A stretch of DNA of 20,886 bases, taken from NCBI GenBank assembly GCA_964553705.1, contig CAZKKV010000016.1, positions 1-20,886 on the forward strand. Direction: 5' to 3'. The notes under the pieces are model-generated. The model had not been told where the DNA came from. It searched no databases and saw nothing but the letters and a program-made list of their open reading frames with translations. Both the position numbers and the translations under genes were made by a program. Positions 12,870 to 20,886 of the stretch are shown here, one piece after another; the first letter of the stretch is position 1, and the number at the start of each line of letters is the position of its first letter. This DNA comes from an uncultured Gammaproteobacteria bacterium. GTDB taxonomy: Bacteria > Patescibacteriota > Patescibacteriia > Patescibacteriales > GWC2-42-12.

Positions 12870-15353
12870 TTAAATAATATTTGTCTGCAAATGATAATAA
12901 CTAGGCTTATTTTTGTAGCGTTTGATTGTCATTCTGATTATTTCTTCCAAAAAATCTCCATAATCCATGCCAACAAATTTTGAAGTGCGTGACAAACAAT
13001 CTTTTACATTAATAGATGGATTAGGGTTTAATTCCAAAACATAAGGGTTATTATTCTTGTCAACTTTTACTTCTACTCGACCGTAATCATGACAGTCTAA
13101 AATATTATAAGTATCAAGAGCAATTTCGGTAATCAAAGATTCTAGTTTTTTATTACTATTTTTGGACGGCTCTTCCACTATGACAGTTTTATAAACCGGA
13201 TCGTTTGCCCATTTGGAATCATAAGCATAAATATGCCAATAACCCTTAGGCATTTTATCAAAAATTGAGCGCGATAAAGGCAGAACGCGTAAGTCGTCCT
13301 CCTCACTACCAATAATAGGCACGTCATATTCATCACCTTCAATATATTCTTCAATCAATGCTGGGCTACCCAACTCAACAATTACTTTTTTCAATTGTTT
13401 TTTTAATTCTCGTTTATTTATCACCACTGATTCATTGGTAATGCCTATTGAATTGTCAGTATTGGCTGGCTTAACTATCAGGGGGTATTTTAATTCGTCG
13501 TCAATTTCATCATCAATGTTGTAAGCATAATCCCATTTGGCTGTCGGAATACCATGATAGGTTAATAATTTTTTTACTCTGATTTTATCAATACATAAAC
13601 CAAGCGTAAATGGATTGGAACCGGTATAAGGAATTTGCAATATGTCAAAAATCGAAGCAGCATGCGGTTCTAATAAACTGGAATTATTTATTCTTTCGCA
13701 GACATTAAAAACCAAATCAACGTTGCTGTCTTTTAACTCGTTAAACGCTTTTGGTAAATCGTTAAAATCAAAAAAAGTTGCTTGGTAGCCTCTTTCACCT
13801 AAAGTTTTTTCAATATTTTTACCTACAGAAAAAAGTTCAGTGTCAATAACTTCATTTTCATCTAGCGGTAAGTTGCAAGCGATACCGATATGCAAATTAC
13901 GTTGATTAGCAATTAATAATCGTCTGATTTTTTCCAATTTAGCAGCGCCTTTCAAAATTTCTTTATTAGCCGAAGCCATAGAGAATCTGTTTCTTCTTAA
14001 TGTCTTGCCGATTGAAGATGCCGGATCAAATTTGGCAGTTTCATAACGAACACTTTTTAAAATTTCATCAAGATTGTCTTCAGCGTCAATTGGATTATCG
14101 CCAGAGGCAACCATCCAACCCAAATATTCATAACCTTCTGGCGGGACTAGGACGGTGTCGCCGATTTTTTTAAACAAATACAACTCTTCAAGATTTTTAT
14201 TTTTTTTAATTTTTTCATCAACATCCAATTTAACTAGTAATCCTGAATCATCGGGCGTAAAAGTATTACTAATTAAATATTTATACGGTTCAATCGGTTT
14301 TTTTAACTTCTCAACATAAATTCCCAGAGCGATTTTCACAGCATTTTCAATCAAATCAACTCTCCAAGCTTCTTTGGTAAAGGCGTATGTTTCATCACCA
14401 CCCATTCTTAAATTTATTTCAATCGGCACTGGACCGTTTTTTGTTGCTTTGGCTTCAAAATGAATACAGCCGTTTTGTATTTCTAATTTTTCTAAAACTC
14501 TTTCTGCCATTTCGAATAAAGCTGTTTGATCCTTTTCTGGCAAGTCAGACGGAATAGCTTGTTGATGTTCAATAAAAAAAGGTTCTTCAGTTTTGTAATT
14601 ATCAACGATTGAATAAAATTTTATTTTGCCATTTTGTAATAAAATATCAATATCAACTTCATCGCCGTCAATATATTCTTCAATTAAAATTTCCACACCT
14701 TCACTCAATGACGATTCAACGGCTGGTGAAATATTTTTTTTGACGTAATTATATGTGTCAAAAAAATCGTCCTGATTTTCAGCTTTGACAACAAAAGCGC
14801 TTGAAGAGCCAAAAATCGGTTTGAAGACAACTGGAAATTTCAAACCATTTGTTGCACGACCAATGTCTTTGTCGGATTTAATCAGCAAATGTCTTGGAAA
14901 AGCAATACTATTTTCTTCACAAAATTGTCTGAACAAAAATTTATTACGTGCTTTTTTGGCAGTTTCTAATGGAATGCCAACCAAATTAAGTTGCTCAACT
15001 ATTTTGGAAATCAATAGCACGTCATCTTCCCAAAAAGTAATTACACCGTCAATATTTATCTCAGAATGAGAAGCCAAGAATTGCTCTAAATCTTCCAAAG
15101 CTTTGGCGTGATTGCGGTTATCAGTAATCACCCAATCGTCAACATAAGGACTAGCCCAATTTTTTTCCGGATTTATGACAATTATTTTTAAACCGAGTCT
15201 TTTAAGTTTTTGAACGATAAACTTTTTTTTGAGTGAACCAGTATTGACCAACAACAAGGTTTTACCTGCAAACAAACCATTATTCTGATGATTATTATTA
15301 TTGTTTTTTCTGCTATGATTCATAAAATTTTTTAGATAAACAAAAAAAGACAA
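12870..15353 (-). CDS. large tandem ATP-grasp ligase (two ATP-grasp modules; the C-terminal one is D-Ala-D-Ala-ligase-like)
   Basis: 827 aa; module 1 FPVVFKPIFGSSSAFVVKA...EINLRMGGDE; module 2 YPLIVKPANTDNSIGI...VLELNPNPS; TTG start called by the ORF track (an internal ATG at codon 11, MNHSRK, is an alternative). Confidence 0.85.
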   Translation of the reverse strand: MSFFVYLKNFMNHSRKNNNNNHQNNGLFAGKTLLLVNTGSLKKKFIVQKLKRLGLKIIVINPEKNWASPYVDDWVITDNRNHAKALEDLEQFLASHSEINIDGVITFWEDDVLLISKIVEQLNLVGIPLETAKKARNKFLFRQFCEENSIAFPRHLLIKSDKDIGRATNGLKFPVVFKPIFGSSSAFVVKAENQDDFFDTYNYVKKNISPAVESSLSEGVEILIEEYIDGDEVDIDILLQNGKIKFYSIVDNYKTEEPFFIEHQQAIPSDLPEKDQTALFEMAERVLEKLEIQNGCIHFEAKATKNGPVPIEINLRMGGDETYAFTKEAWRVDLIENAVKIALGIYVEKLKKPIEPYKYLISNTFTPDDSGLLVKLDVDEKIKKNKNLEELYLFKKIGDTVLVPPEGYEYLGWMVASGDNPIDAEDNLDEILKSVRYETAKFDPASSIGKTLRRNRFSMASANKEILKGAAKLEKIRRLLIANQRNLHIGIACNLPLDENEVIDTELFSVGKNIEKTLGERGYQATFFDFNDLPKAFNELKDSNVDLVFNVCERINNSSLLEPHAASIFDILQIPYTGSNPFTLGLCIDKIRVKKLLTYHGIPTAKWDYAYNIDDEIDDELKYPLIVKPANTDNSIGITNESVVINKRELKKQLKKVIVELGSPALIEEYIEGDEYDVPIIGSEEDDLRVLPLSRSIFDKMPKGYWHIYAYDSKWANDPVYKTVIVEEPSKNSNKKLESLITEIALDTYNILDCHDYGRVEVKVDKNNNPYVLELNPNPSINVKDCLSRTSKFVGMDYGDFLEEIIRMTIKRYKNKPSYYHLQTNII

Positions 15354-17871: not shown

Positions 17872-17944
17872 GGGTGGCTAGAGGGAATTGAACCCTCGCC
17901 AGCGGCGCCACAAGCCGCTGTTCTACCATTAAACTATAGCCACC
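17872..17944 (-). tRNA. tRNA-His (anticodon GTG) with encoded G-1; CCA not encoded
   Basis: minus-strand sequence G-GTGGCTA TA GTTT AATGGTAGAAC A GCGGC TTGTGGC GCCGC ... GAGGG TTCAATT CCCTC TAGCCAC C; manual cloverleaf; GC-rich relative to flanks. Confidence 0.85.
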
Positions 17945-17998: not shown

Positions 17999-18532
17999 CT
18001 ATGCTTTGTAAAAATAAATTTTTTCACCATTAGCTTCCAAAATTTTCTCTGCTGTCCAATTTGGTAAAGAAAATTTATAGCTAACAATCGTTGCACCAGC
18101 CCGACATTCAGCTCTAAACTTTTTAGCCAATTTATTCATCATTTTCTGATTTAAATAACAGTATATCAAATCCGCTTCGCCGACGTCAATCTTGAATAAA
18201 TTTTTCTTTTTGAATTCTATCCTTAATCCTTGGCAAGCTGACTGAATGCAAGATATAAAATACGGCCAAAAAGAATTTTCTATACCAATCAAGTTGACAT
18301 TTGAAAATTTCGTACGAGCCGCTTTCAAAAAACCAGCTCTACCACTTCCTAATTCGTAAATTTTATTTATTTGGACTAAATCAACGCTGTCTAAAACTTT
18401 TTTTACCACTTCTGATTTACTAGAAATAAACGGCGCAAATCCACGAAAAATAATATTAAAAAACATTTCACCCAACAAAATCATCACCATCAAAATTATT
18501 ACGCCTGAAATAATAAAAAATGATTCCGTCAT
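17999..18532 (-). CDS. membrane-anchored class I SAM-dependent methyltransferase
   Basis: 177 aa; N-terminal TM helix; motif I ELGSGRAGF; lies between two tRNA genes. Confidence 0.65.
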   Translation of the reverse strand: MTESFFIISGVIILMVMILLGEMFFNIIFRGFAPFISSKSEVVKKVLDSVDLVQINKIYELGSGRAGFLKAARTKFSNVNLIGIENSFWPYFISCIQSACQGLRIEFKKKNLFKIDVGEADLIYCYLNQKMMNKLAKKFRAECRAGATIVSYKFSLPNWTAEKILEANGEKIYFYKA

Positions 18533-18568
18533 ATGTTTAAATTAATTTTAAATTCTTAATTCACCTAG

Positions 18569-18640
18569 TACGCCCAGAGGGAATCGAACCCCCATAGCCA
18601 GCTTAGAAGGCTGGTGTTCTATCCGTTGAACTATAGGCGC
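18569..18640 (-). tRNA. tRNA-Arg (anticodon TCT); acceptor stem has G·U pairs; CCA not encoded
   Basis: minus-strand sequence GCGCCTA TA GTTC AACGGATA GAAC A CCAGC CTTCTAA GCTGG CTAT GGGGG TTCGATT CCCTC TGGGCGT A; manual cloverleaf. Confidence 0.75.
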
Positions 18641-18802
18641 ATACTATTTTGTTAAATTCTAAATTCAGTTCTTGATTATTTTAATTTCCAAATACTTAAA
18701 ATTTAAAAATTAACTTTCATTCAAAATTCTTAATTCAAAATTCACAATTCTTTTTACTATGGGCGCATACACAAAATAAAAATTGCCCTATGGCAATACA
18801 CT

Positions 18803-18831
18803 AAATTTACCAAAAATATCGTTTTTTGTCA
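18803..18831 (-). promoter_or_regulatory. sigma70-like promoter TTGACA-17-TAAATT (minus strand) about 155 nt upstream of tRNA-Arg; its -35 lies inside the duplicated terminator-promoter cassette
   Basis: revcomp 18826-18831 TTGACA; 17-nt spacer; revcomp 18803-18808 TAAATT; palindrome ATTGCC-ctat-GGCAAT at 18781-18796 near the predicted start. Confidence 0.45.
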
Positions 18832-18847
18832 ATTTTCATATGAAAAA

Positions 18848-18873
18848 AGCACGTTAATTAAAATCAACGTGCT
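18848..18873 (-). terminator. intrinsic terminator AGCACGUU-N10-AACGUGCU followed (minus strand) by UUUUUUCAUAUG; ends the P3-P2-P1 operon
   Basis: 8-bp perfect stem; A-run 18842-18847 on the plus strand; homologous copy at 19993-20018. Confidence 0.6.
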
Positions 18874-18886
18874 TCTGTTTCTTGTG

Positions 18887-19216
18887 TTAGTCATTCTCTT
18901 CTACCCAGTCCTTTTCGTGTTTACAAACTACTACGACAATAGGCTTTTTTCGAGAAATTTCAAGTACGAAATACAATATCCAGCTGACGACTACCCCTCC
19001 AATAAATGCCCCCAAATCAATTTTGTCATTGACAGGAATACGTATTGGCAACAAATCATTCATTGCCGCAAAAAATAACCCAAAAATAAAGAAAAAAATC
19101 TTTTCTACCGTCGGTGAATCTTTTATTAAACTTCTGATAAAAAGACACAAAAACAACCCCATTAAAAAACTAAAGCCATATACCACGTATTGCATTACTT
19201 CTAATGATGATTCCAT
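18887..19216 (-). CDS. small 3-TM membrane protein, paralogue B1 (109 aa), homologous to 20033-20323
   Basis: MESSLEVMQYVVYGFSFLMG... versus MEIIPEIMKYMAYVFSLLAG...; shared IFF.IFG.FF.A...PVN...FGG.V..W..Y; homologous RBS regions; overlaps the upstream gene by 16 nt. Confidence 0.6.
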   Translation of the reverse strand: MESSLEVMQYVVYGFSFLMGLFLCLFIRSLIKDSPTVEKIFFFIFGLFFAAMNDLLPIRIPVNDKIDLGAFIGGVVVSWILYFVLEISRKKPIVVVVCKHEKDWVEEND

Positions 19217-19557
19217 TTTCTTTCACCTTTCTTTTTCACAAAAATTTCTTTTAAGCAAGCAAGAATTGTAAAAAATATGATGGCACATCCTGTCCCAAAA
19301 AGAAAACCATTAACAACAAACTGATTCCAAAATTTTAGCCCCGTCAAAGTGGCGAAAAAAAACATCAAAAACAAAATAACTGAGAAAAAAATTAAATTAA
19401 AAGTAAAATGATATATTTCTATCTTTCCCCATAGTTTCCCTGGCGGTAATTTTTGTATTACAGGAATCATAACAATCGCAACGGCAACAGCATAATATCC
19501 TGCTCCGAGAGCTACAATCCATGCAATCATATTGTAACGAACTATAAAAGATTCCAT
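19201..19557 (-). CDS. small 3-4 TM membrane protein, paralogue A1 (118 aa), homologous to 20314-20649
   Basis: AWIVALGAGYYAV versus AGWFVALATGFLAG; GFLFGTGCAIIFFTIL versus GLFTGAGFFLTLFLI; GGGGAGG RBS. Confidence 0.6.
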   Translation of the reverse strand: MESFIVRYNMIAWIVALGAGYYAVAVAIVMIPVIQKLPPGKLWGKIEIYHFTFNLIFFSVILFLMFFFATLTGLKFWNQFVVNGFLFGTGCAIIFFTILACLKEIFVKKKGERKWNHH

Positions 19558-19578
19558 CTTCTACCTCCCCGATTGATT

Positions 19579-19896
19579 CTAAAAAGGATCATCCTTTTCT
19601 ATTTCGGAATAAACGCCGATGAAAATTAACAAAAAAGTTACTACGCCACAATTAAAAATTTCCACGACAAATTTCATATCAAAAAAATTCATCGAAATAC
19701 TTTCTTGAAAAATGCCATTCATAATCCCGAAAATTATCATACCCATCATAAAAGAAATACCCCAATAACCACTGTCTAAATACTGTTCCATTTCTCTCCT
19801 AAGCATTATCTCTGCTATGGCAGGGAGAAACGTAAACCCCGACAGAAAAATAGAAACAAAACCTAAAGTTAAAATCAAAAATTTAATAAAAATCAT
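19579..19896 (-). CDS. small 3-TM membrane protein (105 aa), first gene of the P3-P2-P1 operon; its RBS/start region is homologous to that of 20314-20649
   Basis: RBS AGAAGGGAGGGAGAGTGAAAAATGATTTTT versus AAAAGGGGAGGGAATGAAAAATGAATTTT; weak protein similarity to the A-type paralogues. Confidence 0.55.
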   Translation of the reverse strand: MIFIKFLILTLGFVSIFLSGFTFLPAIAEIMLRREMEQYLDSGYWGISFMMGMIIFGIMNGIFQESISMNFFDMKFVVEIFNCGVVTFLLIFIGVYSEIEKDDPF

Positions 19897-19992
19897 TTTT
19901 CACTCTCCCTCCCTTCTTTTTTTTCTTTTTTTCAATGAACCTATTTTCTTTTTACTAAAATTACCATCTTTTGTCAATTTTCATATGAAAAA

Positions 19993-20018
19993 AGCACGTT
20001 GGTTGAAATCAACGTGCT
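19993..20018 (-). terminator. intrinsic terminator, second copy of AGCACGUU-N10-AACGUGCU plus U-run, ending the P5-P4 operon; the embedded TTGACA(-35)-17-TAAAAA promoter for P3-P2-P1 follows
   Basis: the ~70-nt segment 19969-20043 is about 90% identical to 18824-18897. Confidence 0.6.
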
Positions 20019-20032
20019 TCTGTTTTTTTGTG

Positions 20033-20323
20033 TTAATCATCCCTTCCCACCAAACCCTCATCACTTTTATAACTTAGATAGGATAGCCAAAAGATAACTA
20101 TTCCACCAAAAAATATCGAATAACAAGTTACCGTATTAACAGGGGCAGATACTACAAGATGACCGGCTTCGCTTGCCGAAAATAACGCACCAAACAAAAA
20201 AATTATCGTTTTCTTTATTGACCAGCCTATTGCTAAGCTAGCGAAAAAAAGGGCAAAAAGCCACCCAGCAAGGAGGCTAAATACATATGCCATATATTTC
20301 ATTATTTCTGGAATTATCTCCAT
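20033..20323 (-). CDS. small 3-TM membrane protein, paralogue B2 (96 aa)
   Basis: see 18887-19216; even its 3' end and terminator are homologous. Confidence 0.6.
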   Translation of the reverse strand: MEIIPEIMKYMAYVFSLLAGWLFALFFASLAIGWSIKKTIIFLFGALFSASEAGHLVVSAPVNTVTCYSIFFGGIVIFWLSYLSYKSDEGLVGRDD

Positions 20324-20649
20324 TCTTCCTCACCTCTCTTTCCAACATCTTTACAAGAAACTTTCCTACAATATTTTTTAAAATGATAAATAAGAAAAAG
20401 AGTAAGAAAAAACCCCGCACCAGTAAAAAGACCTATGGCGACATACAAGAGGTCAATTACTCTTGGTCCAACCAAGATGTCAAGAAAAATCATTATGGTT
20501 AAAATCGCCAGTAGAGAGAAAAAACAACGAAAAATAAAACGATCTTTTTGTCTGTCTATCAATAATTCTATCATGAATCCAGCAAGAAAACCTGTTGCAA
20601 GAGCCACAAACCATCCTGCTATGTTGCAAAATAATCCAGCAAAATTCAT
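20314..20649 (-). CDS. small 3-4 TM membrane protein, paralogue A2 (111 aa)
   Basis: see 19201-19557; overlaps the downstream gene by 10 nt; GGGGAGGG RBS. Confidence 0.6.
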   Translation of the reverse strand: MNFAGLFCNIAGWFVALATGFLAGFMIELLIDRQKDRFIFRCFFSLLAILTIMIFLDILVGPRVIDLLYVAIGLFTGAGFFLTLFLIYHFKKYCRKVSCKDVGKRGEEEWR

Positions 20650-20748
20650 TTTTCATTCCCTCCCCTTTTATAATTTTTTAATTTTTAATGTTCATTTTAA
20701 AATTATTAAATATTAACAAGACAACGACTTTTTGTCAATATAGATGAT

Positions 20749-20886
20749 TATTTTCTTTTCTTACCGTGAAATGCTTTGTGGACATCACGCAACTGTTGAT
20801 CAGTAATATGAGTATAGACTTGTGTGGTGGTAATTGATGAATGACCAAGCATCGCTTGCACGCTCCTGATATCCGCCCCGCCCATC
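20749..20886 (-). CDS. tyrosine-type site-specific recombinase/integrase (XerC/XerD-like), C-terminal fragment; gene continues beyond the window end
   Basis: minus-strand translation ...[43 protein letters not shown] carries the catalytic-Tyr box LGHSSIxTTQVYTH; TAA stop is revcomp of 20749-20751. Confidence 0.8.

Follow-up and report, generated by a model that had tools for sequence, protein, structure and literature searches.

Unequal recombination between direct repeats on either side of a gene is a general mechanism of tandem duplication and amplification in bacteria. Integron cassettes are promoterless and are associated with attC sites that have RYYYAAC...GTTRRRY cores, and SMR transporters comprise four transmembrane (TM) helices with a conserved glutamate in TM1. 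Here, we describe a locus that shares individual features with each of these systems: an array of five small membrane-protein genes (A2, B2, P3, A1, and B1) that lies between a tyrosine recombinase gene (xer) and tRNA-Arg(TCT) in a 20,886-nucleotide (nt) stretch of contig CAZKKV010000016.1 (hereafter the window; array coordinates are those of the window and the array is on its minus strand). We consider it likely that this is a lineage-specific, tandemly duplicated array of orphan membrane-protein genes in the xer-tRNA-Arg(TCT) spacer of a Patescibacteria genome. As in repeat-mediated tandem amplification, head-to-tail units are bounded by near-identical short repeats, and a putative variant contig (L003) differs by exactly one unit, with its junction inside the identical core of the repeat. 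Unlike in typical cases, the repeat is a functional terminator-promoter and not an insertion sequence or rRNA copy, and the genes are ancient and strongly diverged whereas the repeats are not.

Five consecutive minus-strand open reading frames (ORFs) that encode proteins of 96-118 amino acids (aa) occupy 20649-18887 (Table 1), as an earlier model-generated annotation (the sequence-only reading) had reported, and a GGAGG-type ribosome-binding site precedes each of them. That reading allowed for three or four TM helices per protein, whereas a simple hydropathy profile, supplemented for B2 by an AlphaFold model, gives three in each. Paralogy was evaluated by pairwise identity, E value, and shuffle z score, with phmmer as a cross-check. 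B2 and B1 (35% identity, E 8e-10, shuffle z 18.4) are clear paralogues by these sequence measures. For A2 and A1 (25% identity, E 0.002, shuffle z 4.4), 2 of 500 shuffled pairs scored as well, such that this half of the proposed two paralogous pairs is weak when judged by sequence. However, A2 and A1 agree in position and length, and each overlaps a B gene. Three motifs are also common to both: N-x-x-x-W-x-V-A-L-x-x-G at the start, G-x-x-x-G-x-G in the third helix, and K-x-G-E-x-x-W at the C-terminus. They are probably paralogues, an assignment that draws partly on position, the B overlap, and the K-x-G-E-x-x-W motif. Profiles of A and B are unrelated (hhalign probability 1%), and P3 was related to neither in sequence comparisons. 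The start region of P3 had been described as matching that of the A genes. This holds for A2, to which the P3 5' untranslated region and start are identical at 40 of 59 nt (68%), and fails for A1, where 21-24 of 59 nt is the background level.

Chance open frames on the T-rich strand of AT-rich DNA would also yield small hydrophobic products, because such a strand favours hydrophobic frames, and the absence of homologues in any search is what spurious ORFs would show. We regard this explanation as hardly credible for five consecutive same-strand frames of 96-118 codons that each follow a ribosome-binding site. Moreover, a promoter and a terminator frame each unit, and B1 and B2 retain their protein identity and common motifs while their DNA is only ~50% identical.

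The units are delimited by a cassette that follows both B1 and B2. The two copies form a 78-nt direct repeat (18806-18883 versus 19951-20028) that is about 87-88% identical with a spacing of 1145 nt, in good agreement with the ~70 nt and ~90% identity first estimated. Within it, a 32-nt core (TTGTCAATTTTCATATGAAAAAAGCACGTT) is identical in both copies, where 0 matches are expected by chance. Folded as RNA, the two cassette hairpins, each with UUUUUUC behind it, have energies of -17.4 and -16.3 kcal/mol (z -5.8 and -5.3); by these predictions, hairpin plus U run is a standard intrinsic terminator. A promoter scan returned TTGACA-N17-TAAATT (18832-18804) and TTGACA-N17-TAATAT (20738-20710), each matching at 10 of 12 positions and with a TG extension. 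The proposal that each cassette combines a terminator with a promoter was borne out for both hairpins and for the TTGACA box of each cassette; the -10 element of cassette 2 is only TAAAAA, which lacks the final T and was missed by the scan. A perfect 14-nt palindrome (TTTTCATATGAAAA) separates hairpin and -35 box in both cassettes (18833-18846 and 19978-19991), and could be an operator for a dimeric regulator or merely a U tract plus an A tract. All three unit boundaries have ATTGACAAAA in common, although the -35 consensus in an AT-rich genome may alone account for this 10-mer. The coding DNA of the two units is 45-65% identical, far below the value for the cassette, which suggests constraint on the terminator-promoter, gene conversion, or both.

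Table 1. Coordinates, strand, and description of features in and around the array (window positions).
Feature	Position	Strand	Description
tRNA-His	17872-17943	-	
tRNA-Arg(TCT)	18568-18640	-	
AT-rich insert	18645-18756	-	parts relic tRNA 5' end from working tRNA
Relic tRNA-Arg 5' end + 4 nt flank	18757-18770	-	located where the tRNA starts in L010
Leader hairpin	18782-18797	-	ATTGCCATAGGGCAAT, then T run; also in close relatives between promoter and tRNA
Cassette 1	18804-18883	-	predicted terminator hairpin 18847-18874, palindrome 18833-18846, promoter TTGACA(18832)-N17-TAAATT(18804)
B1	19216-18887	-	109 aa, 3 TM; B2 paralogue; start overlaps A1 end by 16 nt
A1	19557-19201	-	118 aa, 3 TM; probable A2 paralogue
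P3	19896-19579	-	105 aa, 3 TM; similarity to A or B undetectable
Cassette 2	19951-20028	-	hairpin 19992-20019, 14-nt palindrome 19978-19991, -35 TTGACA 19977-19972, weak -10 TAAAAA ~19954-19949
B2	20323-20033	-	96 aa, 3 TM; start overlaps A2 end by 10 nt
A2	20649-20314	-	111 aa, 3 TM, basic C-terminal tail, G-x-x-x-G-x-G in TM3
Promoter-like site 3' of xer	20710-20738	-	TTGACA-N17-TAATAT, TG-extended, 10 nt past xer stop, upstream of A2
xer 3' end	20748-20886	-	XerC/D-type tyrosine recombinase, last 45 codons; gene cut by window end

To place the array in its genomic context, we compared it with the best 80 related loci (given L numbers here) from a genome scan with the recombinase, across which recombinase identity is 58-90%. 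Informatively titled members of this set are Patescibacteria (Falkow-, Buchanan-, Uhr-, Magasanik-, and Parcubacteria). Many of its metagenome-assembled genome records are titled 'uncultured Gammaproteobacteria bacterium (binchicken...)' (L007, L010-L012, and others) and bear a Patescibacteria-type xer and synteny block, such that these titles look like placeholders and not like real taxonomy. Relatives of A, B, or P3 are encoded in none of the 80 loci, and the coding DNA of the array has no similarity to them (the tRNA leader excepted) or to the rest of the window. Likewise, neither the cassette nor its 14-nt palindrome was found in the 80 loci.

The sequence-only reading had taken the truncated recombinase next to tRNA-Arg as the mark of an integration hot spot. 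The locus was extended upstream through contigs with identical A2 copies (L001 among them), which provided the full-length protein of 307 aa (L001:8238-9161). Along its entire length, it scores 255, 249, and 232 bits against the XerD, XerC, and XerA models, respectively; the XerA score is above its cut-off of 220, whereas the XerD and XerC scores are below their equivalog cut-offs. A pnp-NYN-rpsO block lies upstream of xer in 55 of 64 loci, and in 47 loci of the 80, tRNA-Arg(TCT) lies no more than 500 nt behind xer and shares its strand, often with tRNA-His next. Given the match to Xer models, the conserved identity, and the conserved synteny, the recombinase is, on sequence grounds, a core chromosomal Xer in a conserved block of pnp-NYN-rpsO / xer -> tRNA-Arg(TCT). 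Since xer is followed by tRNA-Arg in relatives, the adjacency of the two genes is ancestral, and the view of a hot-spot integrase was not upheld.

The array is absent from all relatives with readable downstream sequence, where xer runs nearly straight into tRNA-Arg. The suspicion that related genomes would have an uninterrupted tRNA-Arg locus is consistent with this observation, and no relative among the 80 loci carried the array in a core context. This absence, a position with a tyrosine recombinase gene on one side and a tRNA gene on the other, and a 14/15-nt duplicate of the tRNA 5' end would all be expected of a genomic island that was integrated at tRNA-Arg by the adjacent recombinase with the tRNA fragment as its attachment (att) repeat. 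Such an origin nonetheless appears exceedingly improbable. The putative integrase is the core Xer, with the same neighbours in genomes that are free of the array. The duplicated segment is the tRNA 5' end, and its two copies, at a distance of 126 nt, leave the array outside. Furthermore, array composition is not anomalous (GC 0.335 and third-position GC 0.290 versus 0.354 and 0.298 in the rest of the window), phage or plasmid genes and viral relatives were not found, and the rest of the window is ordinary chromosome (SSB, S6, YchF, MATE, YibE/F, and ATP-grasp genes). The locus thus resembles tRNA-linked islands with P4- or phage-type integrases in that accessory genes absent from relatives sit beside tRNA and tyrosine recombinase genes, and differs from them in its conserved chromosomal Xer neighbour, in the lack of a flanking att duplication of the tRNA 3' end, and in the lack of foreign composition. 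We rejected an integrase-borne island at a tRNA hot spot on the grounds of the core Xer, the ancestral adjacency, the non-flanking duplicate, and the native composition.

The organization of the spacer in relatives indicates where the array entered. The xer-tRNA-Arg spacer is usually 45-430 nt long, and in the closest relatives the xer stop is followed by a TTGACAAAT promoter, a small hairpin (ATTGCC...GGCAAT), a T run, and the tRNA. In the window, an identical order of promoter, hairpin, and T run follows cassette 1, and a TTGACAAAAA promoter also lies directly after xer, at 20710-20738, the place of the tRNA-Arg promoter in relatives. The cassette-1 promoter, the leader hairpin, and the relic tRNA start align with the xer-proximal leader of L010, L008, and L018; as judged from this alignment, relatives have the orthologue of the cassette-1 promoter as their xer-proximal tRNA-Arg promoter. 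Compared with relatives, the order of promoters in the window suggests an insertion, of 2 kb, inside or beside the former tRNA promoter, and a promoter copy at the downstream end of each unit. Unrelated inserts with a promoter on each side occupy the equivalent spacer of L016, L054, and L057.

The remaining signals that had suggested an island lie in the tRNA leader. The 5' duplicate (18757-18770 versus 18631-18644) is real and is located wholly inside the leader: an insertion of about 126 nt, which includes a copy of gtatGCGCCyATAGT, has split the tRNA after about nt 11, with the downstream one of the two copies now the working gene. Its upstream copy sits at the ancestral tRNA start and leaves the array unbracketed, at odds with its earlier interpretation as an att-type repeat. 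A degenerate third copy that had been proposed at 18790-18801 is instead part of the leader hairpin ATTGCCATAGGGCAAT present in relatives. An ATTGCC-loop-GGCAAT hairpin plus T run is found at the equivalent position in L008, L009, L010, L012, L013, L015, L016, and L018. The leader hairpin resembles a terminator at the 5' end of the tRNA transcript, and could serve as xer terminator, attenuator, or processing signal.

Based on these comparisons, we propose that the tRNA-Arg promoter next to the core xer was the site at which a lineage-specific A-B operon entered. The basic unit would comprise a promoter, an A gene, an overlapping and presumably translationally coupled B gene, and an intrinsic terminator. 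This unit, together with its terminator and the adjoining promoter, would then have been duplicated in tandem, with P3 taking the first-gene slot of the second unit. The coding parts may subsequently have diverged to near saturation, while functional constraint, gene conversion, or both would have held the cassettes 88% identical. In this scheme the last cassette retains the ancestral tRNA-Arg promoter, such that the tRNA would still be expressed. The 32-nt identical core would be a substrate for unequal homologous recombination, which could add or remove whole 1145-nt units.

The variant contig L003 (ENA sample ERZ27248954) is compatible with the last of these steps. Its flanks are 100% identical to the window and it lacks exactly 1145 nt, whereas the two-unit form was recovered in four other samples. 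The single cassette of L003 is a hybrid of the cassette-2 hairpin and the cassette-1 promoter tail, which places the crossover in the identical 32-nt stretch downstream of the hairpin. By its sequence, the junction fits unequal homologous recombination and not strand exchange at the centre of a palindrome.

The same contig bears on a different possibility, namely that the cassettes are recombination sites for the adjacent single Xer, with either a 28-bp imperfect palindrome (11-6-11) or the 14-bp palindrome as the site, and that modules enter and leave the locus as pdif modules, IMEX elements, or integron cassettes do. L003, which is short of exactly one unit, would then be an excision product. 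Site-specific recombination would accord with a possible division of the hairpin into two 11-bp arms and a central 6-bp spacer, with the direct-repeat arrangement of the two sites beside xer, and with the much stronger conservation of the cassette than of the genes. Were it correct, the unrelated spacer inserts in L016, L048, L054, and L057 would be products of the same process, and the locus would be a Xer-linked array of gene cassettes in Patescibacteria, with small membrane-protein modules gained and lost. However, the hairpin arms and spacer of L003 all derive from cassette 2, and the change to cassette 1 lies no less than 32 nt beyond them, outside the hairpin; homologous recombination or a mis-join would be expected to leave such a junction. 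The hairpin matches Escherichia coli dif at about 10 of 28 positions by eye, and no match to the dif consensus was found in the window when up to 3 mismatches were allowed. Together with the points below, these results make recombination by Xer at the cassettes very unlikely.

Compared with Acinetobacter pdif modules and IMEX elements, the array is similar in that short imperfect palindromes bracket a small gene module with a Xer gene nearby. It differs in that dif-like sequence is lacking, the sites are direct and not inverted, and the L003 crossover is outside the palindrome. As in integrons, an imperfect inverted repeat closes each group of small genes in the array, and the neighbouring gene encodes a tyrosine recombinase; unlike in integrons, that recombinase is core and co-directional and lacks integron-integrase features (130 bits in two pieces against TIGR02249, with a cut-off of 265), and the units have their own promoters. 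The arms of the cassette hairpin read GTTAATT, GTTGGTT, or GTTGATT, such that no exact attC core, and no exact R'/R'' core (GTTRRRY), was present in the sequence as read. Hairpin plus U run has the form of a standard terminator, and generic terminators built on these arms are common in metagenomes. A metagenome scan for the cassette hairpin, which used too loose a pattern (AAAAGCACGTT-N8-12-AACGTGCTT), returned more than 119 generic bidirectional terminators, and the extended cassette was in none among the matches listed. The cassette is also missing from the 80 related loci.

With respect to function, loop 1 of the proteins is positively charged and the A proteins have a positive C-terminal tail, which suggests an N-out/C-in topology for A and B as predicted from hydropathy and charge. 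AlphaFold models B2 as a three-helix bundle (pLDDT 86). We infer that A and B probably associate in the membrane as a hetero-complex, with two three-helix subunits in this predicted orientation, and that the complex may have an accessory, strain-level envelope function, perhaps as a small pore or channel or in a protective role. The immunity, holin, and toxin-antitoxin roles suggested in the sequence-only reading are conjectural.

A more specific proposal is that A is a holin-like pore former and B its inhibitor or partner, in a membrane toxin/antidote or exclusion pair that was duplicated for diversification. The predicted topology of A (three TM helices, N-out/C-in) and its tail charge, the glycine zipper (G-x-x-x-G-x-G) conserved in TM3 of A2 and A1, the coupled expression of A and B as read from gene overlap, and an accessory, strain-level distribution are in line with such a pair. 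It is nevertheless unlikely: no match to holin, immunity, or defence models was obtained, no endolysin, lysis, or phage genes are present in the 20.9-kb window or 9 kb upstream, the structure search was non-specific, and the topology argument applies to many small membrane proteins. Class I holins and two-gene SMR transporters are similar to the array proteins in being multi-TM proteins of ~100 aa, with adjacent genes that overlap, and the three helices, predicted N-out/C-in topology, and charged tail of A2 and A1 (from hydropathy and charge) would be holin-like as well. Unlike class I holins, the array proteins have neither a holin-family match nor an endolysin partner, and unlike paired SMR transporters they have three TM helices, no match to Pfam Multi_Drug_Res, and a TM1 glutamate in A2 only.

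Several results weigh against our favoured reading of a lineage-specific, tandemly duplicated array, or against parts of it. The five proteins had no match in Pfam, PHROGs, NCBIfam, PADLOC, or PDB sequences, which agrees with the earlier statement that they fit no known family. These family searches returned only sub-threshold noise (e.g., DUF6962 at E 0.034 and Rhomboid at E 0.042), without any housekeeping family. Run against 5.8 billion proteins, P3 and the A and B profiles recovered the query proteins alone, an exhaustive HMMER pass of the B profile through 1.84 billion representatives recovered only itself, and IMG/VR scans with A and B returned nothing. In the databases searched, all five proteins are, by sequence comparison, true orphans, and no homology backs any function for A, B, or P3. 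The best fold match of the B2 model in PDB and BFVD was no better than E 0.9; B2 was confident in just one of five models, the other four having a pLDDT of about 60, and the A2 model was poor (pLDDT 60). The similarity of A2 to A1 is weak, and phmmer at E<=1 fails to link them. The deletion variant is known from one MEGAHIT contig, and the missing module is present in the sample of L003 as a separate 985-nt contig (L211), such that the two contigs represent either a mixed population or an assembler mis-join at the repeat.

If the array arose as we propose, it is a clean case of a reduced genome that gained lineage-specific small membrane proteins in an insertion-tolerant intergenic spacer, in self-contained promoter-to-terminator units with conserved boundaries that permit gain or loss of whole units. 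The comparison also has corrective value, in that a tyrosine recombinase gene next to tRNA-Arg(TCT) in Patescibacteria is a conserved core arrangement and not an island signature. The surface biology of these episymbiotic bacteria is poorly known, and the A/B pairs would extend it if they turn out to be envelope, pore, or protective proteins.

Partial copies of tRNA 5' ends are not confined to this window. Among the related loci, pseudo-copies of the first 11 nt were identified upstream of 9 of 59 tRNA-Arg(TCT), 2 of 43 tRNA-His, and 1 of 2 tRNA-Ile genes. Those upstream of tRNA-Arg(TCT) occur in the window (18645-18770), L008, L009, L012, L013, L018, L036, L039, L053, L055, and L057; those upstream of tRNA-His in L067 and L076; and that upstream of tRNA-Ile in L012 (~1565-1700). 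The pseudo-copies range in length from 11 to about 38 nt and are found 58-226 nt ahead of the intact tRNA gene. In many of them the D loop contains an inserted GC-rich palindrome. Some of the pseudo-copies are tandemly repeated (L009 and L013), and in L012 one 32-nt palindrome is present in both the Arg and Ile pseudo-copies. The pattern resembles that of a small element, or of a repair scar, with Patescibacteria tRNA 5' halves as its target. A literature check found no description of such pseudo-copies; group I introns in Patescibacteria tRNA genes are the topic of PMC13011429, in which they are not described.

Other features of the spacer and its surroundings vary among lineages. A 16-nt AT-rich repeat (TTAAATTCTTAATTCA) is present three times (18548-18563, 18652-18667, and 18722-18737) and flanks tRNA-Arg on both sides, and in L012 and L013 the xer-tRNA spacer is filled with similar repeats of the AATTTTCAAT type. 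The interval between tRNA-Arg and tRNA-His ranges from about 20 nt to about 4 kb among relatives (L008 and L012 versus L010 and L027). In the window, positions 17999-18532 on the minus strand encode a methyltransferase-like protein of 177 aa, for which one N-terminal membrane helix is predicted and which is shared only with L039, L042, L056, and L062. On the other side of xer, between rpsO and xer and a short way past the end of the window, L001 has a gene for a four-helix-bundle protein (L001:7808-8182; PF05635 / TIGR02436, 23S rRNA IVS family). Such a gene is near xer in just 1 of 64 relatives and represents a second lineage-specific insertion beside the core xer. Further from the array, positions 12870-15353 on the minus strand encode an unusual double ligase, a fusion protein of 827 aa in which one ATP-grasp module (ATP-grasp_4 plus LAL_C2) precedes a second one (a D-Ala-D-Ala-ligase C-terminal domain); its gene adjoins that of a CxxCxxCC protein.

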